A stretch of 64,000 bases of DNA from an uncultured bacterium (GCA_963713955.1 OY970216.1:72075-136074), one strand, 5' to 3'. Shown: positions 9,533 to 57,240, numbered from the stretch's first letter. A program made the numbers and translations. The notes: generated by a model not told the origin, from the letters alone.

Positions 9533-9578
9533 CCATTTATTTCTGCGTATATTCCCCCTTCCTGTTATAATTAACCTA

Positions 9579-21227: not shown

Positions 21228-21249
21228 CTTTCAATTATAGCAGCATGGT

Positions 21250-25054: not shown

Positions 25055-25192
25055 CTTACTTAACCTCCTTGCCGATCTGTAAAAGGTCGGCTTTTCGTTA
25101 TCTGAAATTTTTATCTTTTTCAAATTCTCACTGATAAAATTATACATCTTTCCCGCAAAAACGTCAACTGTTACTTCTCCAAATGCCCTTGA

Positions 25193-25220
25193 TTACTTGT
25201 TACTGGTTACTAGTTACTTG
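25193..25220 (+). repeat. Four tandem heptamers TTACTTG-TTACTGG-TTACTAG-TTACTTG abutting the pilB -10 TATAAT (25221-25226)
   Basis: Read directly. A further GTTACTT lies at about 25170. Confidence 0.8.
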
Positions 25221-25233
25221 TATAATTTATGTA

Positions 25234-38679: not shown

Positions 38680-39360
38680 ATGCAGGGCTTCATCAGCACC
38701 ACACTCTCAGCACCACTCCTCAGTGTCCTTGTTTTCATTTACAACACCATTGCTTTCCACGATCTCGGATTCGCCGTGATCATCCTTACGATTCTCGTGA
38801 GGATCGTTCTGCTTCCCTTCTTCTATAAGGGCGCCCGGGATCAGACAATCATGCAGCAGCTCCAGCCCCACGTGAAACATATCCAGGAAAAGCACAAAGA
38901 CGATAAGGGGAAACAGGCAGAAGCGCTCATGAAACTTTACAAAGAGCACAAGATAAATCCCTTCTCGAGCATCTTACTTCTCATCATACAAATACCCATC
39001 TTCATAGCTCTCTTTGATCTTTTCACCAATAAGATCAAGAGTTATGGTTTTGTGTCCCCGACGTTCCTTGGTTTATTTGATCTCACTTCCAAGAATCTCG
39101 TTGTCGTCATCGTCGCGGCGCTCTTCCAGTATTTTCAGACTAAGTCGATGATGGGGAAGCAGAACGTCAGCGGTTCGGCGGCGCAAGTGCAGAAAGTAAT
39201 GCTTTTCGCGGCCCCCCTCATCACCATTTTGATATTCGGGAACCTCCCGTCGGCGATAGGTCTTTACTGGCTCACATTCTCGGCCTTTTCTTTCATTCAG
39301 CAGATCTACATAAACAAGAAATTGCCGTCATTGCCGGCCATCGCCAGTCCCAAGAAGTGA
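38680..39360 (+). CDS. yidC: Membrane protein insertase YidC/Oxa1 (short form)
   Basis: 226 aa with 5 TM helices and conserved IILTILVRIVLLPF...LYKEHKINP. Confidence 0.85.
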   Translation: MQGFISTTLSAPLLSVLVFIYNTIAFHDLGFAVIILTILVRIVLLPFFYKGARDQTIMQQLQPHVKHIQEKHKDDKGKQAEALMKLYKEHKINPFSSILLLIIQIPIFIALFDLFTNKIKSYGFVSPTFLGLFDLTSKNLVVVIVAALFQYFQTKSMMGKQNVSGSAAQVQKVMLFAAPLITILIFGNLPSAIGLYWLTFSAFSFIQQIYINKKLPSLPAIASPKK

Positions 39361-39409
39361 ATCGGTGCGGGGTTGAAAAAGAGCCCAAAATAAGAGATAA
39401 TGGACGTCA

Positions 39410-39838
39410 ATGACGGGAATTTCGGATTATGTGAAAAGATTTTTCAGCTTAATGGGATTTGAGAGAGTCGACATCAACGTTGACGAGAGCTTGAGAAAAA
39501 TATCGATCGTGGTGGACGACGAGTTTTTCAGGTCCCAGATACCGAACGTTTTGCAACCCATAGAACACCTCATGAATCTCGCATTGAAAAGGGGCGAGAA
39601 ACAGCCGTTTATCGTCGATGTTAATTATTATCGCCGCGAGCGGGAGCGGTTGATCGTGGAACTTGCCAAGGCGGGGGCTAAGAAAGCGAAAATGTCCAAA
39701 TCCGAAGTGGCGCTGCCGCCCATGAATTCTTATGAAAGGCGCCTCGTTCACATGGAAATAGCGACGAACCCTGATTTGAAAACAGAGAGCTTTGGTGTGG
39801 GGAGAGAAAGGCACATTGTGATTGTGCCGATAAGCTAG
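39410..39838 (+). CDS. jag: Jag/KhpB-type R3H domain RNA-binding protein
   Basis: 142 aa with the C-terminal R3H motif SYERRLVHMEI, in its conserved position after yidC. Confidence 0.8.
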   Translation: MTGISDYVKRFFSLMGFERVDINVDESLRKISIVVDDEFFRSQIPNVLQPIEHLMNLALKRGEKQPFIVDVNYYRRERERLIVELAKAGAKKAKMSKSEVALPPMNSYERRLVHMEIATNPDLKTESFGVGRERHIVIVPIS

Positions 39839-41004
39839 GAAGGGAGCCTCACTTGGTAGAGCGAGTTGTCGTACCTGTTTATGAAGTAGAGATTCCCATT
39901 CCAGACAGTGACGTCTTTCGCGTCCATGATCGGTACGTTTGGCGCGCCGCTCAAGAGTACCGAGTTGGTATTTCCGGTCGCCGGGTTGTAATCGTAGAGA
40001 ACGTCGACGGAGTAGAAGGCCCTCTCAAGGTAATCATCCGGCATGACCAGGTTGGAAGTTATGTTCGTTGGGGAGAAGCAATAAAGATCCGAAGAAGAAG
40101 GCGTTGCCGATGAGTCGCATTTGTCCGGCAGCGTCGGGAACGGGAATTTGAAACTAGCAAGCGTGTCCGTATTTATCGTAATCGATCCGTTTCCAGTATT
40201 CTCGTATATCAAAGATCCATTGCTTGTCGGGATGGCATACAGGCCGGATTGGGGAGATAAAATCTCATTCAGGGAAAGGTTCTTGAGATTCATTTCCCAG
40301 ACGGAGGCGGCGTAACTTGCCGACGGCTCCTCGGTCACGATGAGCGTTGTGGAGGCGTGGAAAGCGAGATTTGCGCCGCTCATATAAAAGTTAGGCACTA
40401 TCACTTTTACCATGGGGGGATTCTTACTGAGATCCACATAAGACAGGGCATAGGATCCGGCGTTCGTCGTGACGCCGATGAGCTGATTAGTATTCGCTCC
40501 CCACACCACGTTTATGAGTGTTTGCGGGAGAGAAGACCATGACCCGTCGCCCGAGTTGTACACCGCCCAGCGCGGATTGCTCTGCCCCCCGAACGACACG
40601 AGGACTTTTGATCCGTCTAGGGAAGGCTCAACTGTGTTGAGACCGCTCAGGGTCTGATTCGATTCCGTCGAGTTTTGCCCACTCCCCGCGACCAAAACCT
40701 CTCCGTCGTTGGAGATGTATTTGACCTCGCCGGAATTTTTATCGAGCCAATATTTAAACACGTCGTGGTCTGATATCTTCATGACGATGGGGAGTGTTGA
40801 AGTACCGATCCCCGTCGTTGTTGTGGCGCCCGCTGCGCCGCCAGTTGCTCCGGTTGTTGTTCCTTGCGGGAGGGATCCGGTTTGGCCGGTCGAGGTAGTT
40901 GTTGTCGGCGGTGCTGGCTTGGGAACGAAGAACGTCCAGATGAAATACAGTGCCAAGATCACCCCGGCTACAATCCCCGCGTAAATTATCGTTTTTTTGG
41001 TCAT
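39835..41004 (-). CDS. Signal-anchored secreted protein (Thr/Gly-rich linker plus beta-rich domain); distal gene of the T4SS-like operon
   Basis: 389 aa. The N-terminal TM is YAGIVAGVILALYFIW, followed by a TTTTSTGQTG low-complexity stretch. Confidence 0.5.
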   Translation of the reverse strand: MTKKTIIYAGIVAGVILALYFIWTFFVPKPAPPTTTTSTGQTGSLPQGTTTGATGGAAGATTTTGIGTSTLPIVMKISDHDVFKYWLDKNSGEVKYISNDGEVLVAGSGQNSTESNQTLSGLNTVEPSLDGSKVLVSFGGQSNPRWAVYNSGDGSWSSLPQTLINVVWGANTNQLIGVTTNAGSYALSYVDLSKNPPMVKVIVPNFYMSGANLAFHASTTLIVTEEPSASYAASVWEMNLKNLSLNEILSPQSGLYAIPTSNGSLIYENTGNGSITINTDTLASFKFPFPTLPDKCDSSATPSSSDLYCFSPTNITSNLVMPDDYLERAFYSVDVLYDYNPATGNTNSVLLSGAPNVPIMDAKDVTVWNGNLYFINRYDNSLYQVRLPS

Positions 41005-41008
41005 GGCG

Positions 41009-41944
41009 TTATTTCAATTGAATGTGTACCTGGTCCTCCGTCTCCGTGGTACTGCATTTTATGCTTGTGCCCTGCACGGCGCTACAGATATCTTGGTGGG
41101 CCGAGGTGGTGTCAATGAAGGCGATACTTTGTTGAAGAGTATTAGCGTTGGCTTTCAGATAAGCTATCAGATTTGAGTCGCTTCTTAGGTCAAATACCGG
41201 TTCATTGGGGCCATGTGAAGCGTGGCCGGGTTCCGTACCCCCGGTTATCGTTACGTTGCAGTTGCAATTCGCTTTCAAGGTCGTCAAGAAGCTTACCGCG
41301 GAATCAGGCAGAAAGGCGACGCTGGTGCATCCCGTCGTGCACATGTTGGTGCAGTTGTTGTTCGTGCTGCTGTAAGATACGCCCGCTTTCTGGAGCGTGC
41401 CCATAATTTGGTCTTGGCTTTGGATGGTTGACGATGTGGGTTGGCCGACCGGATTGCAATCCTGTGGATATTGTGTCGCATAGCTCTCGGGCGTTGAAGC
41501 GCCGGCCGCCGGCTGGGCGCCGCTCGGGGCGGATGGTAGAGTCACCGCCGGAGCACTTGGCGGCGTGAGCGTGGTCAAATTGGGATTTATGGTTTTGAGA
41601 ATGAGGAAGGCGCTGAAGAGTATCACGAGGCCGAGAAGGGCGGACGTGATGAAGCTTCTCCCCTCCCGCTCCTTGTCGACGCTCCCCGAGATGGATATGT
41701 AAATCGATCCCCAGATGATCATGCCGACGGCCAGAATCCCCCCGACGCCGAGCGCGAACGTGTAGAGCGTTTGGATGTATCCTTCGAGCGTTGTCTGATC
41801 GACTGAATTGCAAACGCCGTTCACCACATTGATGCAGGGCGGGGAGTTGTAGAGAGTGAGACTGAGACCCGCAGCCCTGGTAACCGCGGGAGCAGTAACC
41901 AAGACGAGGACCACAACCAGTTTTTTAATCGTGTTATTTGACAT
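41009..41944 (-). CDS. T4SS-associated membrane protein with a Cys-rich C-terminal domain
   Basis: I place the start at MSNNTIKK (41944), which has a signal peptide; the track ORF begins at 42007. It has two TM helices (FALGVGGILAVGMIIW; ALLGLVILFSAFLIL) and then a Cys-rich extracellular domain (CTNMCTTGCTS...CNCNV). Confidence 0.45.
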   Translation of the reverse strand: MSNNTIKKLVVVLVLVTAPAVTRAAGLSLTLYNSPPCINVVNGVCNSVDQTTLEGYIQTLYTFALGVGGILAVGMIIWGSIYISISGSVDKEREGRSFITSALLGLVILFSAFLILKTINPNLTTLTPPSAPAVTLPSAPSGAQPAAGASTPESYATQYPQDCNPVGQPTSSTIQSQDQIMGTLQKAGVSYSSTNNNCTNMCTTGCTSVAFLPDSAVSFLTTLKANCNCNVTITGGTEPGHASHGPNEPVFDLRSDSNLIAYLKANANTLQQSIAFIDTTSAHQDICSAVQGTSIKCSTTETEDQVHIQLK

Positions 41945-42623
41945 AGAGGGTTGTTTGGGGTGAAGCCAATTCATAGGGGTTGTTGATGTTCCCGACGGAC
42001 GCACCAATGCTCACGCTCTGCCCGCTCGGCTGGTTCCCGACGTTCAGCGAAAGAGTGTTGTCTGAGCCGCCTGACGCTTGTTGTGATCCGTTTATGGTCC
42101 AGGAAAACGAGAAATCATTAAATGAGGATACGTTGAAAAAGTAAGGGATGAGAGATAAATTGATCGTTGAATTGGCGGGTATGAGCCCATTTGGGTAGGG
42201 CGCGTCGATGACGGCTTTGTACGAAGTGATGGGGATATTTTCAGAGCCCGAGATCGTCGTCCCGTCGGGCATTTGCACTTGTACGCTTACAAAATGTGAC
42301 CCGCCCGCCGTCTGGGTGACTTTGGAACTTGCTTGTTGCTGGCCAACCCCCCCGTCAAGGAAATTTTGATCCAAGTACCACAGGACGGGATCGTTCGAGA
42401 GATCAACCACCTTGCCGTTATTCAGGACTATGAGACTTAGGGATATCGATGATCCGTTGGTTGCGAGGACTTTGCCCGGGAAATCCGACGGGCTGTAGCC
42501 GCTCGAAGACCAGGTGATAATTGTCGAATACGAATTTCCGGGAGACGATTGGGCACCCGCCGTCGCCGCAGCGAGAATCACAAGGAACGCCGTGAGGATC
42601 GTTAGTTGTCGGTTGATGGTCAT
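41934..42623 (-). CDS. Secreted hypothetical protein (229 aa)
   Basis: The signal peptide is LTILTAFLVILAAATAGAQS, and the rest is a beta-rich Ser/Asn-rich region. Confidence 0.45.
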   Translation of the reverse strand: MTINRQLTILTAFLVILAAATAGAQSSPGNSYSTIITWSSSGYSPSDFPGKVLATNGSSISLSLIVLNNGKVVDLSNDPVLWYLDQNFLDGGVGQQQASSKVTQTAGGSHFVSVQVQMPDGTTISGSENIPITSYKAVIDAPYPNGLIPANSTINLSLIPYFFNVSSFNDFSFSWTINGSQQASGGSDNTLSLNVGNQPSGQSVSIGASVGNINNPYELASPQTTLYVK

Positions 42624-43069
42624 GGTAATTTTGAAAGAGCTCCCGCGACCTTGCTGGCGCCGGTTTTTTTCATAATCCCGGATATTGTTTTGTTGCTGTT
42701 CATGATGTCTGTGATCGCAAAGCCAACGGTTTTAAGGAAGAAAGCTCCCACGAGCGGTACTGAGCCAGCTAAGCCGGTGATAAGAAAGGCGTAATTTTTG
42801 ATGTGCTTCAGGAACAAATAGAACTGGATGAGAAGCGTCACGACTAAGCTCATGGCGGCGAGGAGGAAATAAGTGGGGATGCCGACGTAAGGGACCGCCT
42901 GGATGAGATCCCCCATGATTGCCACGAAGTCGACGAAAAGGAGAAGGGGGTAGATAATCAGACGCTCGCCCCAGCCAATCTCTATCACGGGTTCATCGCC
43001 GACGATCTTCTTCGCGGCGCTATCAATTCCTTCCTTGTCGAAGTCTAATGGTTTTAAATCTTCAGGCAT
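42620..43069 (-). CDS. Small polytopic membrane protein
   Basis: I place the start at the internal MPEDLKPLDF; the track ORF extends to 43150, inside virB4. It has 3 TM helices. Confidence 0.45.
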   Translation of the reverse strand: MPEDLKPLDFDKEGIDSAAKKIVGDEPVIEIGWGERLIIYPLLLFVDFVAIMGDLIQAVPYVGIPTYFLLAAMSLVVTLLIQFYLFLKHIKNYAFLITGLAGSVPLVGAFFLKTVGFAITDIMNSNKTISGIMKKTGASKVAGALSKLP

Positions 43070-44825
43070 TGTTTTCTTCTTTAATTCCTTTTGCCTCCAG
43101 AATCTGCTCGGGGTTCGTGGTGACGATCTGATCTTCCGTGTAGGAAGCAATGACCCTGATGGCCGCGTGCTTCAACCCCGCGAACATGAGACCCTCCCCG
43201 ACTGCGGCCTCGAGGAGCAGCGCCGACTCCCCTTCCGTGAGGCCGAATGCCTTCGTGAGAGATTCGATGCTCGTCGGCGATTGTTTGAGCAAGAGCTGCA
43301 TGGCGGAGTTCGTGATAATGGGTCTCCCGTATTCGGATTTCAGGAAGTCATCGACGTCCTGCGTGATGGTCGTGACACCCAGGTAGTACTTCCGGGCGCG
43401 CTTCACGAGGCCGAAGAGAAACGAAGCACTGTCCTTGTATTTCATCATTGACCAAGCCTCGTCGATGACGAGGAGACGCTGTTTCAATTCCGCCCGTATG
43501 AGGTTCCAGACGAAGTTCAGTACGATATACATGGCGATGGGCCGGAGCTCTTCCTCCAAGTCCCGTATCGAGAAGACGATGAGGCGGTTTTTGATGTCGA
43601 CATTCGTCGGCGCGTTCGTGAACCCCGAATACGAGCCGTGCGTGTACTTGTCGAGCCGCTCCGCGATCCCCGTGCCGCCCTCGGTGTTCCGAAGGATCGT
43701 TTGGAGATCCTCGAGGAGCGGTGCGTTGAATTCCTTGAGCGTTCCGAAGTTTTCCGCCGTGATGTCCCGCGACGTGTACGTTTCCGTGATCGCCCGATCG
43801 AGGAGCGATTCTTCTTCGGGCGTTATAACGCCCAGCATCAATTTTACGAGGCCGGTGAGGTTCAAGATGTGGGATTTAAAAACGTCAGCTGGCTCCTCGC
43901 CTTCCGGGATGATTGGGATGTCGAAGGGGTTCACGTGGTTTTTGGACGTGAGGGATATTTTGAAGTAGCTCCCTCCGATTGAATCCGCGAGGTTTTGATA
44001 TTCGTTTTCGGGATCGATCACGATGACGTCGGTGCCGACCATGAGTGACCGGAGTATTTGGAGTTTGGTGGCGTACGATTTCCCGGAACCGGACTTGGCG
44101 AACACGACCATGTTGGCGTTCTCGAGCGAGAATCGGTCGAAAATGATGAGCGTGTTATTCTGCATGTTGATGCCGTAGAGAATCCCGTTGTCGGAGGTGA
44201 GATCGGCCGAGGCGAAGGGAAAAAGCGACGAAGCTGGGCCGCTGTTCAGGGGAGTCCTAACCTCGAGTAGATCCTTCGCAATCGGGATGACTGAATTTAA
44301 TCCTTCCGTTTGGCGGAAGAGCGCGGGCTTGGCGTAGACGAGCCTGCTCTCGAGCGCGTTTATGATCTGGTTTTCCGTTTTTGCCAACTCTTCAAGGTTC
44401 TGGGCGTAGATCGTGAAGTACACGCCGATCTCGAAAAGCTTTTCCCGGGCCTGCTGGAGAGAATCCCTGAGATTTTCTATGTCCTGGTAGGCGGTTTCGA
44501 GGACCGGGTCGCGCACCACGCCTTTCTCGGTCTTTTCGTTTATCTCCGCTTCTATTTGAGCGACTTTTTTTCTGAGGTTCCTCAGGGCTAGGGCCGTATC
44601 CATGGGATGGACGAAGATCGATATATCCATCATGGTTGGCATGTTGATGATGGGCGAGAACCACCCGGTTGAAATGAACCGCGGGTAGGTGAAAATGAAG
44701 AAGGTCTTTGCGTAATAATCGCCGATTTTCAGGTAATTGGCGCTGACCTCGACGCCGGACGGCGCGATCACGTTGAACAAATCCTCTTCTCCCGGCTGAT
44801 ATGCTTTTGGTATTTGGACCTTCAT
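43062..44825 (-). CDS. virB4: Type IV secretion ATPase, VirB4/TrbE/CagE family
   Basis: 587 aa with Walker A FAKSGSGKS and Walker B LLVIDEAW, which is the VirB4-characteristic DEAW. It has a C-terminal ATPase domain and the typical length. Confidence 0.8.
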   Translation of the reverse strand: MKVQIPKAYQPGEEDLFNVIAPSGVEVSANYLKIGDYYAKTFFIFTYPRFISTGWFSPIINMPTMMDISIFVHPMDTALALRNLRKKVAQIEAEINEKTEKGVVRDPVLETAYQDIENLRDSLQQAREKLFEIGVYFTIYAQNLEELAKTENQIINALESRLVYAKPALFRQTEGLNSVIPIAKDLLEVRTPLNSGPASSLFPFASADLTSDNGILYGINMQNNTLIIFDRFSLENANMVVFAKSGSGKSYATKLQILRSLMVGTDVIVIDPENEYQNLADSIGGSYFKISLTSKNHVNPFDIPIIPEGEEPADVFKSHILNLTGLVKLMLGVITPEEESLLDRAITETYTSRDITAENFGTLKEFNAPLLEDLQTILRNTEGGTGIAERLDKYTHGSYSGFTNAPTNVDIKNRLIVFSIRDLEEELRPIAMYIVLNFVWNLIRAELKQRLLVIDEAWSMMKYKDSASFLFGLVKRARKYYLGVTTITQDVDDFLKSEYGRPIITNSAMQLLLKQSPTSIESLTKAFGLTEGESALLLEAAVGEGLMFAGLKHAAIRVIASYTEDQIVTTNPEQILEAKGIKEENNA

Positions 44826-45496
44826 TTTGTTATCCCCATTCCCTGTTTCTCGACGAGTTGAGGATTATAGAGGTTGTAGAAAAGTTCCGTGAGTTCCTCG
44901 TCTTCAAGGGGGACCGCTTTCAGACCCATCTGCGTGAGACCGCTCACAATCCCTTCCGATCGGTTCCTTAACTGCTCGAGATTCTCCTGGATTTTTACGC
45001 CCTCGGCCTGCTTCTGCTCCGTCGTTTTGCCTTTTTTGAAGAAGCTGCCGAAGAGTCCGGAAGCGCCGGCGGCGGGTTCGGGAGTTGGATTGTAAGGCAC
45101 GACCACGAAGAAATTCTTGCTGATGATGGCGTTCTCCTCGATGAAAGACTTTATGAAATTCGTGTACTCGTCTATTTGTATTTTCAAGAGTTCGTTTTGT
45201 TCGTTCTTTTTCCGTTCAGCCATGTTCTCGAGGTATTTCTGGATGTTGACTTTCCGCGAGTGTATGAAAAACTGCGTCCGGAAATCGAGAGAATTCAGGA
45301 ATTTTTGGAAGCTGCCCACGATGGCGTTTTGTTCATCTTCGGATTTGAGATCGAAATTAACGCCGCTCACCATGATAACGTGAACCATTCCGCCGTCTTT
45401 CAGGTAGACGACGCCGTCTTTTATCCTTTTCACCTCCACCAGGTTTTGCGTTGGTAAACTTTTCTCCGCCATCTTTGTTATTTTATCAGTAGTCAA
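44822..45496 (-). CDS. Hypothetical protein, T4SS operon (224 aa)
   Basis: Translationally coupled by a 4-nt overlap with virB4. I recognise no domain. Confidence 0.45.
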   Translation of the reverse strand: MTTDKITKMAEKSLPTQNLVEVKRIKDGVVYLKDGGMVHVIMVSGVNFDLKSEDEQNAIVGSFQKFLNSLDFRTQFFIHSRKVNIQKYLENMAERKKNEQNELLKIQIDEYTNFIKSFIEENAIISKNFFVVVPYNPTPEPAAGASGLFGSFFKKGKTTEQKQAEGVKIQENLEQLRNRSEGIVSGLTQMGLKAVPLEDEELTELFYNLYNPQLVEKQGMGITK

Positions 45497-45977
45497 TACG
45501 TTTCGCCACCTTTCGTTCGCCCGTGAGGTAGGTCACGACTTCGTATTTTTCTTTTCCCCCGCCCCCCCCTGCCTTTTCCTTACTGAAGATTTTGCCGACG
45601 GTGACTTTGAGCGCGAGCGATTTCAGCCGATCGCCGACGCCTATTTTCTTCCTGAGATTTGTCAGATCTTCATCGCTGAGTTCGAGAGTTGTTTTTGCTG
45701 CTTGCCGTTGCCAGGTGTAGGTCCGCTGGTTCAGGGAATATTTAAGAAGAGAACTCATGACTTTTATCATATCCTGGCCATTCACTTTGACGAACGCGAG
45801 CGCGACGGCAATGCCCACGGCGATGAGCGTCACCAGAGCCCAAAGGAGCCCACTGAAGATGTTGTACGCGATGAAACTCACCGCGGCAGCCCCGGCGAGA
45901 TAGAAAAACTGGATGAGCGTCAAAGGGCCGATGATCTTCGGCTTCTGCTCTATGAATTGAGGTACTTGGAATTCCAT
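45486..45977 (-). CDS. VirB3/PrgI-like small membrane protein
   Basis: 163 aa with two adjacent TM helices near the N-terminus (LTLIQFFYLAGAAAVSFIAY; LLWALVTLIAVGIAVALAFV), directly upstream of the virB4 pair. Confidence 0.5.
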   Translation of the reverse strand: MEFQVPQFIEQKPKIIGPLTLIQFFYLAGAAAVSFIAYNIFSGLLWALVTLIAVGIAVALAFVKVNGQDMIKVMSSLLKYSLNQRTYTWQRQAAKTTLELSDEDLTNLRKKIGVGDRLKSLALKVTVGKIFSKEKAGGGGGKEKYEVVTYLTGERKVAKRIDY

Positions 45978-45978
45978 G

Positions 45979-46896
45979 CTAACCGGGTTGGTTTCTAAGA
46001 TCTATGATGTTGCCTTCCAGTTGGGGGCCCTTTTCTGGGCTTTCCTTTTTCTCCGGCGGCTTCTTCATGATCGTGTTGAGAAAAGATTTTGCTGCGGTGG
46101 TGGCACTTTCCGCCGGCTTTATCCCGTTAGAGACCACACCCGCGCTTGGCGCGATTGGTGCTATCTCTTCCGTTTTCAAAAACTCACCTCCCGGCTCGAA
46201 AGGTGTGAGCGTAGATCGACCCTCCGTATAGTGCACAACTCTCGTGGCTGATTTTTTCTCGGGGGATTCTACCGTTGCTCTCACCGTTTTTGCTGCCGTC
46301 GTTCCCGTAAGTTTCCGGGATTTGAAGAAACCGAACGAGAATGCGGGCATCCCCTTCACGTCACCCCCGACAGTTGCTTTTTCTTCTCCCGGCTTTTCTT
46401 GCAGTATGAAAGGTTTTGAGAAGTCCGTCGTCTTTTTCGTTTCTGGCTCAACGGCACCTCTGATGATGGGTATTTCTTCCGGTACTTTATTTACTTCTCC
46501 TGTTGATTCGGGTTGTATTGTCTTCTCTTCGGATTCTAGGTATTCCTTGAGGCCGAGCTTCTCCACATCTTCCGCATCACTTACTTTTATTTCGCTGATG
46601 TCGATTCCCCACCGGAAAAGCGGATACCGCTCTGATTCCAATATTCGTTCCTTTATTGCCTTGGCGATGGAAGCGGCTATCTTCCCGCCGATGCCGGTCT
46701 CCGCGAGTGTTTCGACGAAAAAATGGGCGGGCACCTCTTTCGAGATGAGATCATAATATGCTCTCGGAAGGAGTGAGACGCTGGTGATGCCCGCTTCCTC
46801 GCGGATCTCGTCGAGTATTTTGTCGATCCTTTCGGAAAATAGGCTGTTTTTTATGTTTTGTGGCACATCCCCCAAATCCATATGTTTGTTTGTCAA
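45979..46896 (-). CDS. Hypothetical Glu/Lys-rich protein (305 aa), T4SS operon
   Basis: Long ORF with no motif that I recognise. Confidence 0.45.
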   Translation of the reverse strand: MTNKHMDLGDVPQNIKNSLFSERIDKILDEIREEAGITSVSLLPRAYYDLISKEVPAHFFVETLAETGIGGKIAASIAKAIKERILESERYPLFRWGIDISEIKVSDAEDVEKLGLKEYLESEEKTIQPESTGEVNKVPEEIPIIRGAVEPETKKTTDFSKPFILQEKPGEEKATVGGDVKGMPAFSFGFFKSRKLTGTTAAKTVRATVESPEKKSATRVVHYTEGRSTLTPFEPGGEFLKTEEIAPIAPSAGVVSNGIKPAESATTAAKSFLNTIMKKPPEKKESPEKGPQLEGNIIDLRNQPG

Positions 46897-46907
46897 CCCC
46901 AGGTTTG

Positions 46908-49166
46908 TTAAGTTTGATCTTCGAATGGCGACACATAATCGTCCTCGGTTGCGTTATCGTTCCCATCACCGCCGTTACCCGTTGCAGTACTGACATCCTC
47001 CTTCTTGTATTTTCTCTTGAAGAATCCCTGCCAGGAAATCTGTTTTTTCATTTGGGAGCGCAGGCCGAGGGAGCTTCCCCTATTTTCCTTAGTCCCTTCA
47101 TTTGGGCTCCCGGATTCCATAAGAGTTTTTCTGATTGCCTCCAACTCTTTCTTAAGGTCTATTCTCGTCCTCGTTAAGGCCTCTACTTGGTCCTTATCCT
47201 TACTATCGTTGGCTTCCTTTATATCATTTAAGTTTTTATCCAGTTCTGATTCTTTTTGTTCAAACCTGGTGAACTCCTTGCTTACGGCCTCTTCATTATC
47301 AAATCCTCCTTTACCCTTTCCGGAAATGAATGGGCTTTGTAACCCAGCATCAACCATATCTTGTTGTTCGTTAGTTCCTTTGGTTCCTATTTGAGTAAGT
47401 TGGCCATAGGTCATATAGGGAGCTATAGCATACAGTGTCTCCGGATCCATTTTAGACGCGTCCTCCACTTTACTCGTATACTTTCGCAGTTTTTCTCCAC
47501 GCGTAAGTTTTTTGTCGTCGTTGGCATTGGCCGCTATAACCGGATCGTATTTGGTGAAGTCGTCCTGCATCCCGTATCTCTTTATCATCCCCGTTAATTG
47601 TTTTTTCTTACCATCGCTTAACTTATTCAACCCACCCTTCTCGGCTAAGGCCAGGGCCGCCGGCAGATCGTCTCGCGTCAAGGAGACTATTTGTCTCTCG
47701 AGTTTATTTATGAGTTCGCCTTTGGTATACTTCTTGTTTTTTTCGAAACCCTCCTGGGTTACCTTCTTGGCTCTTTCTTTCACTCCTATGGAAGCCCCGG
47801 CCATGCCGGTTAAAGCAGCGCCCAAGATGGGGATTTTCCCCGCACCGCTTTCGGCCCACTGCTCAAACCACGATCGTCCTCTTCCCTCCTTGTCTTTTGT
47901 GACCCCGGCGGTGGCGGCTCTCCTGCCAAGGGCCGATAATCCCGCACCGGCTGCGCCTATGGTCGCACCTTTCATTATGCCCTTTGCCTTCTCGCCCGTC
48001 TTCTTGGCGACGCCGAGGAGCGCATGACCGCCCCAGACGCCCATGCTGTTCGCAGCCAAGAGTCCGCCGACGAGGAATCCGCAAAGAACCAAAGCATTTG
48101 TGACTTGCACCACAAATCCGTTTATAAGGGTGGAGCCGACCTGTGAGTTCGGATTCGAACTTAGTATAGATTGAGTAAACCCCTTAATCGTTTCTGCCGT
48201 TATTAATGTTAAATATAAGAAAAATGACAAGAATGGCGCTACGAAGGCCCACTGCATAAACTTTTGCCACCACTGCCTGCCTAAACTTTGGAGATTAGGT
48301 ATGGGCAATATTCCAAAAAGCCAGGGGAAAGGAGCCACCGTGAGGAGAAGGGTGAGCCATACAAATCGCGTAAGAAGCATCAAGCCATTAGCCAAAAGAA
48401 CGAGAGCCATGAGAAACGTGAAAGCAGCTATGAAAAACAAACTGACGGCCCCCATAAGGGAACCGGTTATTTCTGCGGCGCCGGACGTGTTGATATTTTG
48501 TATAGTGCTTGTGTCAATATTCAGCCAGCCCTGTGGGTTAAGGGCGGCCACTATGGATGATCCTATGTCATGGGATTGCGCATAGGTGCCGTTTCCTAGC
48601 GACTTGTCGACAAAGAACTTTGTCACAACATTCGTGAAGTCAAGTATCGCTCCGCCGATCATCAAGCTGAAGTTCACGACGATGGCCGCGGCGATGAGCT
48701 TGGGAAGCATTTTCTGGGCGCTGTACTGATTCAGGCGGAGGATCGTCATGAAGGCGATCACGATGAGCGCAAGAACGAAACCGAGATTCGCGATGTCGCG
48801 TGAAACCGTCCAACCCGAAAGAACGATGGGGAGCCGGGTGATGTAGGTGTTGAATTGGAACAAGAACGTTATGAGCATCGCGCCGAGGTAGAGTACCAGG
48901 CCGGCTATGTTCTGCAGCAGCCACAGGATGCCGTTTATGATGGGCCAGAAAAACCAATTACTAAGCCCGCTCAGTATATCATTCCCCAGGTTAACCGACG
49001 CGAAGGTGCCGGCGGCGGTGGTGGGTCCACCGGCGGCGGCCAATTGGAGTAAGTCGGTAAATATGTCGGCATGGGCAGTCTTGGGCAACGATAAGCAGAC
49101 AGTTGAAAAGACAATCAGAGTGATAAGTGCGGATCCGGAGATTTTATAAAGTGCCTTTCTATGCAT
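46908..49166 (-). CDS. VirB6/TrbL-like polytopic membrane protein
   Basis: 752 aa with a signal peptide, 7 or more TM helices across the N-terminal 450 aa, and a charged coiled-coil-like C-terminal tail. Confidence 0.5.
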   Translation of the reverse strand: MHRKALYKISGSALITLIVFSTVCLSLPKTAHADIFTDLLQLAAAGGPTTAAGTFASVNLGNDILSGLSNWFFWPIINGILWLLQNIAGLVLYLGAMLITFLFQFNTYITRLPIVLSGWTVSRDIANLGFVLALIVIAFMTILRLNQYSAQKMLPKLIAAAIVVNFSLMIGGAILDFTNVVTKFFVDKSLGNGTYAQSHDIGSSIVAALNPQGWLNIDTSTIQNINTSGAAEITGSLMGAVSLFFIAAFTFLMALVLLANGLMLLTRFVWLTLLLTVAPFPWLFGILPIPNLQSLGRQWWQKFMQWAFVAPFLSFFLYLTLITAETIKGFTQSILSSNPNSQVGSTLINGFVVQVTNALVLCGFLVGGLLAANSMGVWGGHALLGVAKKTGEKAKGIMKGATIGAAGAGLSALGRRAATAGVTKDKEGRGRSWFEQWAESGAGKIPILGAALTGMAGASIGVKERAKKVTQEGFEKNKKYTKGELINKLERQIVSLTRDDLPAALALAEKGGLNKLSDGKKKQLTGMIKRYGMQDDFTKYDPVIAANANDDKKLTRGEKLRKYTSKVEDASKMDPETLYAIAPYMTYGQLTQIGTKGTNEQQDMVDAGLQSPFISGKGKGGFDNEEAVSKEFTRFEQKESELDKNLNDIKEANDSKDKDQVEALTRTRIDLKKELEAIRKTLMESGSPNEGTKENRGSSLGLRSQMKKQISWQGFFKRKYKKEDVSTATGNGGDGNDNATEDDYVSPFEDQT

Positions 49167-49167
49167 G

Positions 49168-51114
49168 TTATGGAGCTTTTATCTGGAGTATGCCTGTCCA
49201 AGCCGGAAGTTTCTGGAGTACGCCCTTCAAACCGCCGACGCCGACCTTGGTCAGTTTGTTGATAATGGCGTTTTGCAAGATGCTCCCGATGTCGGTAAGA
49301 TCCTGAGCATTGATTATGGAAGTTATGTCGGCTTGAGTCGCCTGCTGGGCCAATCCGGCGGAGATGTTAGAAGGCTGGGCGATGCTCCACGCGCTGTTAC
49401 CTTGGCTATCTAGACAATCATAAAACATATCACTACTACTACTGGTGAAGAATCTATTGTTCGCGTCTTTGTATGCGGAAGATTGCATGTTTTGTCCTGC
49501 GTCTTTGGGGATGCTTACAACGTTGCCGTTGCCGTCGGTCGTGGTAGTCAAATCCACTGGGTAACCGTAGTACAAATTATTGTTTACCCACTGTTGTGTT
49601 ACGGGAGACGTACCGGTTAGGGAGGATGTAGTGGTGAATTTCAGCCAACTATCGCACTCATACTGATTCTTATATCCGTTGCCTTGGTTCATTTGGTTCT
49701 GTAATTGCGTGGTAGCCGCCGCACTGGCTTGGGACGCGAGCTGTTGAGTTATTGCCGACTCGCCGTAGTAATTGTTCTGAGGCATCATGATCTCCTGATA
49801 CCCGACCCAACCGCCGGTCCGGAAGTCGTTATAGAATCCCTGGATGTTGTTTTGTAGAACCTGGTTTAGGGTGCAACTCACCTGCTGGTAGAAGGGATTT
49901 GTTTCTCTTGCGACACTTGGTATCTGAAGAGTCACTGATAGTCTGAACGGCTGGCAGAGTTGCGGAGCTATGTTTGAGATAAGGCGGTCGACGGCGTTGA
50001 GGCCGGCATCAGCCAAATCTTTCCATGGCCTCTGGAAATACTGCGGTGCGTTCACGGATATGGTACCGTTCTTGATTTGTATCCCGCCGTTTTGGATCCA
50101 GTCGACCGTCTCGGTTGTGAATTGGTAAAGAAGCGATCGTTTTATCGTTTCGACGGTTTGTTTCAAGAGGAGATCGCACTTGGCTCTCGTGTCGGCTATG
50201 GTCTCCTGGTTTTTTTGTTCGGCGTTCACCTGTTTGGTGGCTTCCGTACTTTTGTTCACGGCTGATTCTACGCTTTGGTCATAAACCGGCACTGTGCTAA
50301 GATTCAGCAGCGCTTTGGTTTCTGATGTAAGCTGGCCGGCCACGTTGTTGCTCACTTGAGTAAGCACCTGTTTTGCCTGATTTTCCACCCCCTGCTTGAT
50401 GTCGTTGATCTGACCATTGATTGATTTTAGCGGTTCGTTGTTGGGATTGGTCAGTATTTTTTGAGCGACGTTCTGGATATTAGCGCTACTGAAAAAATTT
50501 CCCAGTTGGCTGACGGAAACACTGGACGTACCGAAGATGTTAGTTAGAAGCGTTGAGGTCACAAATCCACTCAAGTCTATTTTGTAACTGCTTAAAGCAC
50601 TCGCGAACTTGTTTTGCAGTTGAGGCAGAAGCATAGCGCCTACATTCTTAGCTATCTGTTCCGGGCTCCCAACCGTCGTGTACCAAGCGTATTTCTGCGC
50701 TATTTCCGCCGCCGCGGTGCATGATTCCATCCCTGGAGGGTTTTGCGTTTCCTGGTTTGATAGAATTCCTGCGCCGGTTATCGGGCCGCCGGAGCAGACC
50801 CACCCGATAACGGGAGGACTGTCCGTAATGTGGGTCGAGCTTGCATAGTTCAAGGTATAGACCGGCAGCGTCGGCGTGGCGAAGGGGGTTGAGCCCGATA
50901 AGTCCGGTGCCTGTTCAAACACCGTGTTTGGAGGGTTCGTGAAATCGCTGTCGTTGGTTGGGTCCACCGGAGAACCGTCCTTTGTCCACACCAAAGTGTA
51001 CGCCGTGCAGTTGCCGGTTGTCGTTTGAGCTTCGGACTCATAGGGGAAATAAGCGGAAGACAGGGCGATCGCGACCACTGGGATCAAGGCAAGTTTTTTA
51101 ACCCAGTTTTTCAT
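49168..51114 (-). CDS. Large secreted protein (648 aa), T4SS operon
   Basis: It has a signal peptide, is Gln/Asn/Thr-rich, and has no catalytic motif that I recognise. Confidence 0.45.
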   Translation of the reverse strand: MKNWVKKLALIPVVAIALSSAYFPYESEAQTTTGNCTAYTLVWTKDGSPVDPTNDSDFTNPPNTVFEQAPDLSGSTPFATPTLPVYTLNYASSTHITDSPPVIGWVCSGGPITGAGILSNQETQNPPGMESCTAAAEIAQKYAWYTTVGSPEQIAKNVGAMLLPQLQNKFASALSSYKIDLSGFVTSTLLTNIFGTSSVSVSQLGNFFSSANIQNVAQKILTNPNNEPLKSINGQINDIKQGVENQAKQVLTQVSNNVAGQLTSETKALLNLSTVPVYDQSVESAVNKSTEATKQVNAEQKNQETIADTRAKCDLLLKQTVETIKRSLLYQFTTETVDWIQNGGIQIKNGTISVNAPQYFQRPWKDLADAGLNAVDRLISNIAPQLCQPFRLSVTLQIPSVARETNPFYQQVSCTLNQVLQNNIQGFYNDFRTGGWVGYQEIMMPQNNYYGESAITQQLASQASAAATTQLQNQMNQGNGYKNQYECDSWLKFTTTSSLTGTSPVTQQWVNNNLYYGYPVDLTTTTDGNGNVVSIPKDAGQNMQSSAYKDANNRFFTSSSSDMFYDCLDSQGNSAWSIAQPSNISAGLAQQATQADITSIINAQDLTDIGSILQNAIINKLTKVGVGGLKGVLQKLPAWTGILQIKAP

Positions 51115-51859
51115 CTTGTATTTTCTGGTCTATCTCCTTTTGTATCTGGGAAAAGGCGGAATCAAATTGGTTCGACCCTCCTTGATACAGGGCTATCATG
51201 AATCGAAGCGGATCGTCGCCGGATTTGGCGAGAGATTCAAAAACGTTTCTCTGGTGTATCAGGAGGGTTAAAAGATCTTTGTGTATACCAACCCAAGAAG
51301 GGGGAACTTTGATAAGTTCCAAAAGTTGTACAGCGGTGTCGAAGTTCTGCGCGGCAGTCGTGAAGGTGGACACGAGATCGGTGGTTGGCGTGGAGCTTGC
51401 ACTGAAAGTCGGGATGTCGGAAATAACCTGGTCTGCGTAGAGGAGATAGAACATCTGTGCTGACTTTGAGTCATCCGTGCCGACTGCGATGTCGGAACTC
51501 GTCACCACCTCGCTGGCATACTCATTGTCTATTATTTGGGATATTGTGTCTTGAATATCGGCTGAATTGGATGGGATAATACTGGGGGAGCCTTTGTTTT
51601 GATAAAGATTGTTATTTACTGCATTCTCGAAAGTTTTATTGGCGAAGTCGAGTGTCAGGTTCTCGAGCGGTGACGACTGGTAAGCCAGAGTCGGATCCGG
51701 CAGTTGGTTTTCTTGGCCCTTTACCACCCGTATCGAAGACCCATTGTTTTTCGAAGCTGGGCTGAATATCAGGTAGGCGCTCCAGGAGAGTGCAACGGCT
51801 AATATGACCGCACTTATCACCTTCCTGTTTCTTTTGGTTAGTTTCCTTTTGATTTTCAT
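51098..51859 (-). CDS. Signal-anchored hypothetical protein (253 aa)
   Basis: The N-terminal TM is VISAVILAVALSWSAYLIF. Confidence 0.45.
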   Translation of the reverse strand: MKIKRKLTKRNRKVISAVILAVALSWSAYLIFSPASKNNGSSIRVVKGQENQLPDPTLAYQSSPLENLTLDFANKTFENAVNNNLYQNKGSPSIIPSNSADIQDTISQIIDNEYASEVVTSSDIAVGTDDSKSAQMFYLLYADQVISDIPTFSASSTPTTDLVSTFTTAAQNFDTAVQLLELIKVPPSWVGIHKDLLTLLIHQRNVFESLAKSGDDPLRFMIALYQGGSNQFDSAFSQIQKEIDQKIQDEKLG

Positions 51860-51950
51860 AGCTCACTTTTGCATGCGCCTTTTGAAATTAACGCTAAAAA
51901 CCGCAGGCACACCAATTCCTGACTTTAATTATACAATATTAGAACGGTAC

Positions 51951-52340
51951 TTAAAATGGTAGGAGAGAGGTTCCTATAGAGAAAATTGGATAAGCTACTT
52001 GCGGTACCGGTATCGGAGGTGTTGTAGCGGTATAACATGGGAGTGGTGTAGTGAGATATAATCCAAGCGTCCATGCCCCAGTGAAAAATACCCTGTAACT
52101 ATAAGTGATAGTGGTTGGTAAAATGATCAACCATAACCCCGTCGGCGATATCCCGGACCTAATTGACATTGGGGCGTTCATTGCCGGCGGTATTCCGCAA
52201 AGTATATCTGGGACCGGATTTAATAGAACCTTATCACCAAAAGGGGTATAAATACTTATGGCTTCTACTTCTTTAGCGCCGGCAGCACCCACCGCGATAA
52301 AAAACACCGCTATCAATGTCAAAATCAACGTTTTCTTCAT
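51951..52340 (-). CDS. Small hydrophobic secreted protein; candidate T4SS pilin (VirB2/TrbC-like)
   Basis: 129 aa with a signal peptide MKKTLILTLIAVFFIAVGAAGA and a central hydrophobic segment. It is the first gene after ksgA in the operon. Confidence 0.35.
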   Translation of the reverse strand: MKKTLILTLIAVFFIAVGAAGAKEVEAISIYTPFGDKVLLNPVPDILCGIPPAMNAPMSIRSGISPTGLWLIILPTTITYSYRVFFTGAWTLGLYLTTPLPCYTATTPPIPVPQVAYPIFSIGTSLLPF

Positions 52341-52348
52341 ACTTTGAT

Positions 52349-53170
52349 TTAATTATACAACATTCCGAACATTTTTATTGTGTTTTCAAGAGAGATATCT
52401 TGCGGCCGGTCGTTCGGGTCGATGTTTATTTCTTTTAATTTACTCGCTATTGCCTCCTTGTCGCGGGTGGGTGCTAGATTATTGAGTATTGTTTTTCTCG
52501 GTTGTTTGAATAACGCACGAAGAAACTTGTAGTACTCGGCCTCCCGAGCGCCTTCAGTGCACGGGAGGCTTCGGGGGGTGAGTCTTATGACGGTGGAATC
52601 GACTTTGGGCGGCGGAGAGAATTCTTTCTTGCCGACGCGAGCGATAATCTTCGGCGATGACCAGGACTGGGTCACGGCAGCGAGGAGGTTCATGTTCGGA
52701 GGTTTTGCGACAATTCTCTCGGCAACCTCTTTTTGGATCAACAAGGTTATGATCTTCGGTTTGTGCCCGAGTTCGCTCAAAATCCGGAGCAGGTGTCCGG
52801 TGATGTAGTAGGGGATGTTGCCGACCACCTTGTAGTCGGAATTTTTAATTTCTAATTTCGAATTTCTAGTCAACGATGGCAGAATGGTCAGGGCATCGCC
52901 GTTTACGATTTCTAGCTTCGGCATTTCACCGTTAGAAGTTGATTCGGCGTTAGGAATCAGGAACTTGGCGTTCTCTTTCAATGAACTTACCAGGGAATGG
53001 TCTTTCTCTACGGCTACGACTTTGATCGGATGTTTCAATAGTTGTCCTGTCAGCTCCCCGTGCCCCGGCCCAATCTCGATAACGATATCACCGCCTTGCA
53101 AATTTAAGGAGTCCACGATCTCTCGCAGTATCTTCTTATTTTTCAGAAAGTGTTGACCGAGATATCGCAT
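52349..53170 (-). CDS. rsmA: 16S rRNA (adenine1518/1519-N6)-dimethyltransferase
   Basis: 273 aa beginning MRYLGQHFLKN, with a SAM motif VIEIGPGHGELT. Confidence 0.88.
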   Translation of the reverse strand: MRYLGQHFLKNKKILREIVDSLNLQGGDIVIEIGPGHGELTGQLLKHPIKVVAVEKDHSLVSSLKENAKFLIPNAESTSNGEMPKLEIVNGDALTILPSLTRNSKLEIKNSDYKVVGNIPYYITGHLLRILSELGHKPKIITLLIQKEVAERIVAKPPNMNLLAAVTQSWSSPKIIARVGKKEFSPPPKVDSTVIRLTPRSLPCTEGAREAEYYKFLRALFKQPRKTILNNLAPTRDKEAIASKLKEINIDPNDRPQDISLENTIKMFGMLYN

Positions 53171-53172
53171 GT

Positions 53173-54102
53173 TTGTGTTGTTTGCATATGTTCGCGTGTT
53201 GGTGTTATACTACTACTATTAGTACTTTGCTCAAATATGCAAAGACCTATGCGAGGTCTTCTTTGAGGTCCGGGATCTTCTGGGCCGCCTTTTTATTTGT
53301 GTCGGTGGCTATTGTATTTTCTGTTTTGAAAGTACGTGCGGATGGCGGCGGATCTGCGACAGACCCGAATTTCGGGGGACCCATCGAGACCCCCCCGGAT
53401 TCGTACGTTTATTCCGTAAGCGGCGGAACCGCTGCCGTCGACGATGCCGCGCTGGGCAATCTTTTTGTTTCGGAATCAGGCGTCATCGGCGGTCAAAATC
53501 CGCTGATCGGCATGATTCCGCTGGGGAACGGGATCGTCAAATATAAAGTCAAAAAGGGAGACACCGTGTCCGGCATCGCTGAAGAATTCAGGACCGTGGC
53601 GGAGAACGTGCAGGCGACAAACGGGAATGCTCTCAAGAGCGTCCGTCCGGGCGATTGGGTCATCATAGCGACGGTGGTTACTTCAAGCACCGCTCCTTCA
53701 GCAGGGGTATCAAATCTCCCCGATCTTAAAAACTATTTCAGCCTTCCGGCGGTGGGATGGAATTGGGGACAACTCCATGATTACAATGCCGTGGATATCG
53801 CGAATCAGTGCGGGACGCCTGTCTCCGCGGCCGCGGAGGGACTTGTGATATCGGATCCGAATCTGGGAGACGGATCAAGCGGATGGAATGACGGATACGG
53901 CGTCTTTGTTTTTATTGAACATCCAAACGGGACCAAGACGAGGTACGCTCACCTTGCGAAGGCGCTCACCAAGATCGGCGACTACGTGAAGAAGGGGCAG
54001 GAAATCGGGCTTATGGGCAACACTGGCAACACCCATGGACCAACGGGTTGCCATCTCCATTTCGAGGTTTACGGCGCGAAGAACCCGTTCGCCATACAAT
54101 AA
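53173..54102 (+). CDS. LysM-domain M23 family metallopeptidase
   Basis: It has a LysM motif YKVKKGDTVSGIAEEF and an M23 catalytic HLHFEV motif. The true start is probably downstream of 53173, a possible TTG near 53227 after a TATACT -10, because no intergenic space would otherwise remain before the divergent rsmA. Confidence 0.75.
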   Translation: MCCLHMFACWCYTTTISTLLKYAKTYARSSLRSGIFWAAFLFVSVAIVFSVLKVRADGGGSATDPNFGGPIETPPDSYVYSVSGGTAAVDDAALGNLFVSESGVIGGQNPLIGMIPLGNGIVKYKVKKGDTVSGIAEEFRTVAENVQATNGNALKSVRPGDWVIIATVVTSSTAPSAGVSNLPDLKNYFSLPAVGWNWGQLHDYNAVDIANQCGTPVSAAAEGLVISDPNLGDGSSGWNDGYGVFVFIEHPNGTKTRYAHLAKALTKIGDYVKKGQEIGLMGNTGNTHGPTGCHLHFEVYGAKNPFAIQ

Positions 54103-54146
54103 ATAGTATCAAGTAGTTAGTATTGTTATTCATACTAAGTACTAAT

Positions 54147-55701: not shown

Positions 55702-56043
55702 TTATTTCCCCCTTTGCGCCATTTTACACTTTTTACAGAGAATAGATTCAGGATCTACTTCAAGCACTTCCATTTCTATCTTCCCGCCGCATTTCTCGCA
55801 GATGCCGTAGGTGCCGTTTTCCATCATTTCGAGCGCTTTACCTATCTGCTTCAATCTCGCGTCTTGGCTCTGTTTTACGCTCAAATAATTGGCCATCTCC
55901 TCCGATTCGTCCGTTTCTTCCTCCAAGTGATCCGTATCGTCCCCGAAATCGAGTTCCGATTCGAATCTCTTCATGTTCCCTTCTATGAGATTCTTTTCTG
56001 CGAGGAGCCTCTCTTTTAATTTTTCCAGTTCTTTTTTGTTCAT
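55702..56043 (-). CDS. DksA/TraR-family C4 zinc-finger protein
   Basis: 113 aa with a coiled-coil, an acidic tip, and CEKCGGKI...CKKC. Confidence 0.75.
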   Translation of the reverse strand: MNKKELEKLKERLLAEKNLIEGNMKRFESELDFGDDTDHLEEETDESEEMANYLSVKQSQDARLKQIGKALEMMENGTYGICEKCGGKIEMEVLEVDPESILCKKCKMAQRGK

Positions 56044-57211: not shown

Positions 57212-57240
57212 TGTGATCTTATTATAGCATATTTCTCTTT

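Follow-up and report, generated by a model that had tools for sequence, protein, structure and literature searches.

The 64,000-nucleotide stretch of DNA from an uncultured bacterium analysed here (GCA_963713955.1 OY970216.1:72075-136074, hereafter the window) carries on its minus strand a block of eleven genes, o3 to o13 (51859 down to 39835), which very probably encode a chromosomal type IV secretion system (T4SS) of the Patescibacteria type in a Paceibacteria-like bacterium belonging to the candidate phyla radiation (CPR). We identify it as a T4SS because three of its genes pass curated family cut-offs, namely those for a VirB4 ATPase (o9), a PrgI protein (o7) and a T4SS pilin (o12). The block contains four core components (a split VirB4, PrgI/VirB3, VirB6, and a VirB2-like pilin domain), all of them conserved in related genomes. 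An initial annotation of this DNA had proposed a minimal T4SS that lacks the genes for DNA processing, as reported in episymbiotic CPR and some Gram-positive bacteria, and that may serve another purpose than conjugation. This central reading is correct, conjugation being improbable, and it matches the published T4SS of Patescibacteria (PMC12102498; PMC10633639). The system having already been published (2023–2025), the window holds a further example of it and no new kind; what is added is small, and consists of seven conserved items without a family match and of variable C-terminal extensions on the pilin.

The core components of the secretion system

The block belongs to a run of 13 consecutive open reading frames (ORFs), all on the minus strand and spanning 53170 to 39835, which we number o1 to o13 in the direction of transcription. 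All thirteen ORFs listed in the initial annotation are present. The junctions from o1 to o13 measure +8, +91, −17, +1, +11, +1, −11, −4, −89, −4, −74, and +4 nt, negative values being overlaps; the overlap between o9 and o10 shrinks from −89 to −8 when o10 is read from its ATG, and that between o11 and o12 from −74 to −11 when o12 is. The ORFs had been described as overlapping or spaced by less than 20 bp, which is correct for every junction but one, the sole loose junction being the 91 bp between o2 and o3 (51860-51950). GC content within the cluster is 0.49–0.53, the same as in its flanks and in the rest of the window.

The ATPase is encoded by o9 (43062-44825; 587 aa), in which the Walker A (FAKSGSGKS) and Walker B (VIDEAW) motifs are both intact. 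It matches NF045971, the family of VirB4-like conjugal transfer ATPases of the CD1110 family, with 382.6 bits (E-value 3.7e-114; cut-off 325), and PF19044 with an E-value of 3.5e-29. The identification of 43062-44825 as a VirB4 ATPase with Walker A and B motifs, which had been made to depend on a match to VirB4/TrbE profiles, is thus upheld by a curated profile. The match covers only positions 189-728 of the 752 in NF045971. Upstream, o8 (44822-45496; 224 aa), which overlaps o9 by ATGA, matches NF045975 (VirB4_plasma; 1.1e-12, profile positions 92-233) and NF041427 (TrsD; 4.5e-9).

For comparison, we searched genome contigs for relatives of o9, found more than 558, and retained the best 80, with one genome scanned per species; these 80 all come from Patescibacteria or unclassified metagenome-assembled genomes, at 56–91% identity, while the best plasmid VirB4s, CD1110-family proteins of Firmicutes and Actinobacteria, reach about 34%. 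Two of the loci, L010 and L011, each encode one unsplit VirB4 (793 and 790 aa). Because these unsplit proteins are collinear with o8 plus o9 (residues 1-210 of the L010 protein align to o8 with 49% identity and residues 223-787 to o9 with 63%), VirB4 is split in the window, o8 corresponding to the TrsD-like N-terminal domain and o9 to the ATPase, that is, the C-terminal two-thirds. The split is ancient and conserved: a separate o8 is found in 77 of the 80 related loci, with a spacing between o8 and o9 that differs among them. The gene preceding o8, o7 (45486-45977; 163 aa, two predicted transmembrane [TM] segments), matches PF12666 (PrgI; 37.6 bits, 3.3e-9, cut-off 27). A two-TM VirB3/PrgI-like protein had been placed immediately upstream of the ATPase; its identity is borne out but its position is not, since the 224-aa o8 intervenes.

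The 752-aa polytopic protein o5 (46908-49166) has about seven TM helices in residues 60-390, followed by a hydrophilic helical C-terminal domain of about 360 aa. The window sequence alone has no Pfam or NCBIfam match. Its homologues carry precomputed matches to PF04610 (TrbL) and to PF19590, which we take to be TrbL_3, and members of the family match TrbL, TrbL_4, and the CD3337/EF1877, MMCAP2_0566, Mbov_0396, and pLS20_p028 membrane proteins, which belong to conjugation systems of Gram-positive bacteria and Mycoplasma. The consensus of 63 Paceibacteria homologues scores 25.7 bits against TrbL (1.1e-5; cut-off 25.9), and the top structural match of a full-length AlphaFold2 (AF2) model is TrwI, which has the VirB6 fold. 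Aligned by hhalign with a single CD1112 VirB6 sequence, the o5 profile gave no significant result (E-value 0.057), and against PDB sequences it returned coiled-coil noise only, from the C-terminal domain. On the basis of homologues, consensus and fold, o5 is an extended VirB6/TrbL-like protein with a long helical C-terminal domain, as first annotated.

Among the ORFs of the run, o12 alone bears a pilin signature (41009-42007 as the longest ORF, 41009-41944 from its ATG); it encodes a signal peptide and two hydrophobic helices followed by a C-terminal extension of about 190 aa with 10 cysteines. It matches PF18895 (T4SS_pilin) with 38.6 bits (1.2e-9; cut-off 26.6), and 30 of the 31 members of its family match PF18895 too. 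The cluster thus does hold a pilin domain, although its carrier is this Cys-rich two-TM protein and not the one first singled out. The C-terminal extension is variable, total length in the family ranging from 85 to 561 aa, and in five members an M15/LAS peptidase (SxHxxGxAxD ... HxH) can be recognized within it (L005:6319-8004, L007:6335-7297, L038:13628-14437, L063:3655-4446, and L072:13662-14552). Such pilin–peptidase fusions go unmentioned in the survey of Patescibacteria T4SS (PMC12102498). In the window, the extension shows a degenerate motif in which QVH replaces HxH; a hidden Markov model (HMM) built from the five clear M15 members misses this copy, so that the resemblance is at the level of the motif and the extension was rejected as an M15 peptidase. 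The related L033 protein scores just 0.013 (E-value) against the same HMM.

Six further genes of the block and the extension of o12 have no apparent Pfam or NCBIfam family. The first gene in every case, o3 (51098-51859), encodes a bitopic protein with one predicted TM segment at its N-terminus and about 220 mostly helical residues outside the membrane; nothing informative was found for it in PDB or Pfam. Directly upstream of the VirB6-like gene, o4 (49168-51114) encodes a 648-aa secreted protein with 8 cysteines and a conserved core (W339 ... P357 ... C387 ... NN447-448). Its family consensus, like that of o2, has no Pfam or NCBIfam family, and its AF2 model is unusable, with a predicted local distance difference test (pLDDT) score of 48.7. 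Three of 25 family members match TrbJ (NF010448; 2.3e-5), presumably the VirB5 homologue of RP4, and four of 25 match DUF4141; the succession of o4 and o5 also mirrors that of virB5 and virB6. A VirB5/TrbJ-like stalk or tip protein is thus a weak lead only. Between the VirB6 and PrgI genes, o6 (45979-46896) encodes a soluble protein without TM segments, with roughly 100 conserved residues at the N-terminal end, a tail of low complexity, and the motif DPYREP at the C-terminus, and directly after VirB4 lies o10, a small three-TM protein (42620-43150 as the longest ORF, 42620-43069 from the likely ATG); neither sequence nor consensus of these two matched a Pfam or NCBIfam family. The secreted or anchored beta-rich protein o11 (41934-42623) is probably built of Ig-like repeats, to judge from a weak match of its consensus to Ig_3 (4.4e-5) and from a PDB match, likewise weak, to Hoc. 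Against PDB sequences, the profiles of o3, o4, and o11 gave nothing significant. The last gene, o13 (39835-41004), encodes an N-terminal anchor, a linker rich in Thr, and what is probably a TolB-like beta-propeller, suggested by weak profile matches to TolB chains (E-value 0.0024) and to TIGR02800 (TolB; 2.6e-4).

Conservation of the block and its place beside the replication origin

The 80 loci include Jorgensen-, Kaiser-, Taylor-, and Zambryskibacteria as well as Paceibacterota, and are mostly Paceibacteria. Using tblastn and iterated HMMs (the HMM counts include the window, among 81 sources), we located homologues of o3 in 52 loci, o4 in 55, o5 in 63, o6 in 66, o7 in 70, o8 in about 77, o9 in 81, o10 in 60, o11 in 70, o12 in 69, and o13 in 58, the shortfalls being due mostly to contig ends. 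Wherever these genes were found, their order was constant, and downstream of the block there always follow yidC (with or without jag) on the opposite strand, a gene of about 110 aa, and then dnaA and dnaN. The o3–o13 order thus recurs among the 80 Patescibacteria loci, and its place beside jag-yidC and dnaA-dnaN is kept in 52–70 of them. Recurrence of one gene order in up to 70 independent genomes is more than chance.

In the window, the neighbours are dnaN (35438-36544), dnaA (36696-38066), rpmH and rnpA (about 38.3–38.7 kb), yidC (38680-39360), and jag (39410-39838); dnaN and dnaA point one way and rpmH, rnpA, yidC, and jag the other, an arrangement found in about 55 loci. This gene order and a cumulative G-C minimum at 37.5–38 kb place the putative replication origin (oriC) here, where E. 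coli-type DnaA boxes (TTATCCACA) do not cluster. The cluster ends about 1.7 kb from this putative oriC and is transcribed towards it, that is, head-on to the replication fork; a head-on block of about 12 kb at the putative oriC is conserved across Paceibacteria. The two loci with an unsplit VirB4, which come from more distant Patescibacteria (L010:9335-11716 and L011:9350-11722), occupy the same place beside jag-yidC-dnaA with a simpler variant: they have an 85-aa pilin without extension and no recognizable o3, o4, o11, or o13. Because the same order stands beside the same flanks across the 80 loci, o3–o13 is a vertically inherited chromosomal system and not a mobile element.

That the block might have lost its function and be what is left, in decay, of an ancient conjugative element is suggested by the distribution of VirB4 over two ORFs and by the altered HxH motif in the C-terminal domain of o12 in the window genome. 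We regard this as hardly credible, because its eleven genes are intact and syntenic in 50–70 species, the Walker motifs are preserved, the split is ancient (a separate o8 in 77 of 80 loci, at a variable distance from o9), and the homologues in Southlakia are essential (PMC10633639).

The cluster had also been said to be headed by ksgA, and this co-transcription to be unusual. The comparison leads us to revise both points. The first ORF of the run, o1 (52349-53170), is indeed ksgA/rsmA, encoding the 16S rRNA adenine dimethyltransferase (PF00398; 1.4e-51), and its adjacency is the rule: of the 48 loci with enough flank, 46 have ksgA upstream of the cluster, and KsgA has already been reported as a neighbour of Patescibacteria T4SS (PMC12102498). 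It directly adjoins the cluster in 22 of these 46 loci, a same-strand gene stands between it and o3 in five, the window included, and in 19 it is separated from o3 by one to three genes on the opposite strand. In the window, the 91-bp gap before o3 holds a −10-like element (TTGTATAAT; octamer TGTATAAT at 51928-51935, −), a candidate promoter of the T4SS operon. The string 'TTGTATAAT.AAA.TCAGG' upstream of o3 is common to the window and L006, and in 31 of 48 loci the 120 nt upstream of o3 contain a TAnAAT hexamer, compared with 19% of random windows. Because opposite-strand genes part ksgA from the cluster in 19 loci, and given the gap, the −10-like element and the TAnAAT enrichment, o3 is most likely the start of the T4SS operon proper. 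Transcription might read through from ksgA; ksgA itself is a conserved neighbour and no T4SS component, and probably not an obligatory part of the transcription unit.

The octamer TGTATAAT is enriched about tenfold in the window, with five copies against 0.54 expected; the others lie at 3714-3721 (+), 25139-25146 (−), 25219-25226 (+), and 52352-52359 (−), the last before o2. The element TGNTATAAT is found at 9563-9571 (+), 21234-21242 (−), and 57221-57229 (−). Several −10-like elements stand only 7–12 nt ahead of annotated starts, so that transcripts in this organism may be leaderless or have a short leader. A consensus scan for promoters and terminators over 39000-54500 gave site counts equal to those expected from shuffled sequence and was uninformative; a terminator-like hairpin right after the stop codon of o13 (39810-39828, −), found by pattern scan and itself at chance level, is a possible end of the operon.

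Between ksgA and o3, o2 (51951-52340) encodes a small protein with a signal peptide, which had been described as pilin-like. Neither as a single sequence nor as a family consensus does it match any Pfam or NCBIfam family, and it has no pilin signature, so that this description falls away, the sole such signature being that of o12. In 21 loci a homologue of o2 occupies the interval from ksgA to o3, in one orientation or the other (L015, L016, L021, L046, L055, L061, L068, L071, L072, and L075 among them); the homologues share a length of about 120–135 aa, a signal peptide, the motifs PFGG, CxC, and W.LG.Y.PG..C, and a C-terminal GTS. They form a genuine family of small secreted proteins, and o2 is probably not a member of the T4SS core.

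DNA-processing genes and relation to known systems

The absence of DNA-processing genes from the cluster, claimed in the initial annotation, extends to the rest of the window: among the 40 ORFs scanned with Pfam in these 64 kb, we found no relaxase, no VirD4/TcpA coupling protein and no VirB11 (about 20 shorter ORFs, most below 270 aa and none above 335 aa, were left out of the scan). The P-loop proteins of the window are ClpB/ClpC-like, PilB, RuvB, DnaA, and ComM. A PilB-type ATPase (25183-26904, +; 573 aa; T2SSE, 386 bits) was considered as a VirB11 and rejected given its length and its position 14 kb away among housekeeping genes.

The families matched by VirB4, PrgI, and VirB6 are those of the mating-pair formation (MPF) class FATA of monoderm bacteria, and the nearest conjugative relatives are of the CTn2/CD1110 type. 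One example, Clostridium botulinum plasmid pCDC3875, shares with the window a CD1110-family VirB4, the succession VirB6-like, PrgI, VirB4, and a monoderm architecture without VirB7, VirB9, and VirB10. Its gene order is VirD4 - x - VirB6 - PrgI - x - VirB4 - x - SLT hydrolase. It differs by an only ~34% identical, unsplit VirB4, by a short VirB6 of 260 aa, by the SLT hydrolase, and by possessing a VirD4-like type IV coupling protein (T4CP) and a MOBP assignment by MOB-suite, whereas the window has a pilin and no DNA-processing genes. The Mycoplasma integrative and conjugative element contains a comparable trio of pilin-like protein, polytopic membrane protein and VirB4 (Mbov_0395, Mbov_0396, and Mbov_0397), to which o12 (3.6e-4), a member of the o5 family, and o8 plus o9, respectively, show weak matches, all below curated cut-offs; that module, however, resides on a mobile element with DNA-processing genes. 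With the R388/Agrobacterium VirB systems (MPF-T), the window shares the VirB6 fold (TrwI), a VirB2-type pilin and possibly a VirB5-like gene followed by VirB6, but those systems are diderm and have VirB7-10, VirB11, and VirD4, absent from the window, and o5 has an extra domain of about 360 aa. Bordetella Ptl, Brucella VirB, Helicobacter pylori ComB and archaeal Ced likewise do without a coupling protein or relaxase encoded at the locus, their roles being non-conjugative; they belong to other MPF classes and envelopes, with no specific homology beyond VirB4, and no CedA-like, ComB7-10-like, or VirB7-10-like protein was recognized in the cluster.

The closest correspondence is with the T4SS clade of Patescibacteria. 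Their VirB4 proteins form a monophyletic clade nested in MPF-FATA, near which TrsD, PrgI/VirB3, VirB6, and PF18895 pilins are abundant, and in Paceibacteria DnaA, DnaN, KsgA, RnpA, and RpmH are frequent T4SS neighbours (Quiñonero-Coronel et al. 2025; PMC12102498). The window agrees in its MPF-FATA-like VirB4 with a separate TrsD-like gene (o8), in the PrgI/VirB3, VirB6, and PF18895 pilin near virB4 without relaxase or T4CP in the cluster, and in its chromosomal location near dnaA/dnaN with KsgA, RnpA, and RpmH. In Southlakia epibionticum, transposon sequencing identified SEML1_0006-0019, pilins included, as essential for epibiotic growth, and the missing coupling and relaxase proteins were noted (Wang et al. 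2023; PMC10633639). The window differs by a single pilin-domain gene with a long Cys-rich extension, compared with arrays of 2–11 short pilins in Saccharimonadia, and essentiality has been demonstrated in Saccharimonadia only.

Several points weigh against a Patescibacteria-type T4SS. The cluster has no recognizable VirB8-like or VirB1-like component, in which it differs from the published systems, and for seven items conserved in Paceibacteria (o3, o4, o6, o10, o11, o13, and the o12 extension) Pfam and NCBIfam offer no family. What points to a VirB5-like o4 is weak, the promoters and terminators called hardly exceed chance or do not exceed it, and a coupling protein could sit elsewhere in the genome of about 805 kb.

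This last point bears on the idea that the cluster serves conjugation, as an integrated conjugative element or as a chromosome mobilizer, with its relaxase and coupling protein encoded elsewhere. VirB4, PrgI, and VirB6 are after all homologous to MPF-FATA conjugation proteins, T4CP homologues occur in most Patescibacteria genomes, usually far from virB4 (PMC12102498), and a tyrosine recombinase is encoded at 60172-61056. Yet this recombinase is Xer-like and parted from the cluster by housekeeping genes, no relaxase or T4CP was found among the 40 scanned ORFs of the 64 kb, and the hallmarks of mobile MPF-FATA elements are lacking, the position beside oriC and the gene order being identical across many species and the GC content of 0.49–0.53 not deviating from that of the flanks. 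Relaxases are moreover found in just 103 of 3,035 genomes, and the VirB4 phylogeny follows taxonomy (PMC12102498). We therefore consider such a conjugation system very improbable; the block rather appears to derive from a monoderm MPF-FATA conjugation machinery that became fixed beside the origin without DNA-processing genes.

Possible function and other genes of the window

By analogy with the structure of R388 and its VirB3–VirB4 and VirB5–VirB6 contacts, the split VirB4 would dock via PrgI/VirB3 on a VirB6 platform, and would power the assembly of the channel and of a pilin-based fibre, which is unusual for a monoderm. The products of o3, o4, o6, o10, o11, and o13 and the extension of o12 might then form or ornament the wall-crossing part in contact with the host. 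Its most likely use would be contact-dependent, non-conjugative transfer of macromolecules between epibiont and host. Reviews propose either the delivery of effectors or the uptake of host molecules for the Patescibacteria T4SS (PMC11665869; PMC12857230). Export of proteins or effectors, or a contact function, seems to us a reasonable possibility, to which we would give slightly less than an even chance.

An import machine comparable to H. pylori ComB or archaeal Ced, by which DNA, nucleotides, or further building blocks beyond the capacity of the reduced genome would be obtained from the host, is somewhat unlikely, though it deserves attention. Southlakia needs its T4SS but can dispense with comEC (PMC10633639; PMC12857230), and uptake has been proposed (PMC11665869; PMC12857230); the lack of a relaxase or T4CP in the cluster would fit, as would a weak match of o9 to CedB (NF041017; 5.1e-13). 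That match, however, amounts to 48.5 bits, far under the cut-off of 700, and no CedA-like or ComB7-10-like genes were recognized. Bolder still, and to our mind doubtful, is the notion that the T4SS core of Paceibacteria is embedded in a lineage-specific, strictly conserved 11-gene apparatus amounting to an uncharacterized wall-spanning, host-piercing organelle that imports host material and is encoded head-on beside oriC; its parts would include the possibly VirB5-like o4, the Ig-like o11, the TolB-like o13 and pilins with variable enzymatic or adhesive extensions (in some species an M15 peptidase).

Few machines are known to be indispensable to the epibiotic lifestyle of CPR bacteria; the Patescibacteria T4SS is one of these. 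With the window comes a clean Paceibacteria example whose flanks are complete. Comparing 80 loci defines eleven genes that always travel together, with ksgA and o2 as neighbours rather than parts, and this list is a practical starting point for structural and genetic work on Paceibacteria. The residual interest lies in this eleven-gene core, in the seven items without a family match, in the pilin extensions and in the head-on placement beside oriC.

The other scanned genes of the window are housekeeping genes: they encode ArgRS, a Clp ATPase, MurB, PGM, a type IV pilin-like protein, PilB, RuvB, PolA, a histidine kinase, PBP1, DnaN, DnaA, YidC, Jag, an M23/LysM peptidase, ComM, a DksA-like protein, PNPase, the Xer-like recombinase, and PAP2. 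The M23/LysM peptidase (53173-54102, +; TTG start) is divergent from ksgA, with 2 bp between the starts of the longest ORFs (53170-53173), so that its true start probably lies farther downstream or the promoters lie inside neighbouring coding sequences. It was considered as a VirB1, but adjoins ksgA in just five or six loci and is thus no conserved part. Just upstream of this pair lie a ComM-like, competence-associated protein of the Mg-chelatase family (54147-55679, −) and a DksA/TraR-type zinc-finger protein (55702-56043, −). The gene of the pilin-like protein (9579-10802, +) is, like that of the PilB-type ATPase, a type IV pilus gene, and its product joins an N-terminal methylation motif to a lectin domain of the LamG/ConA-like kind.

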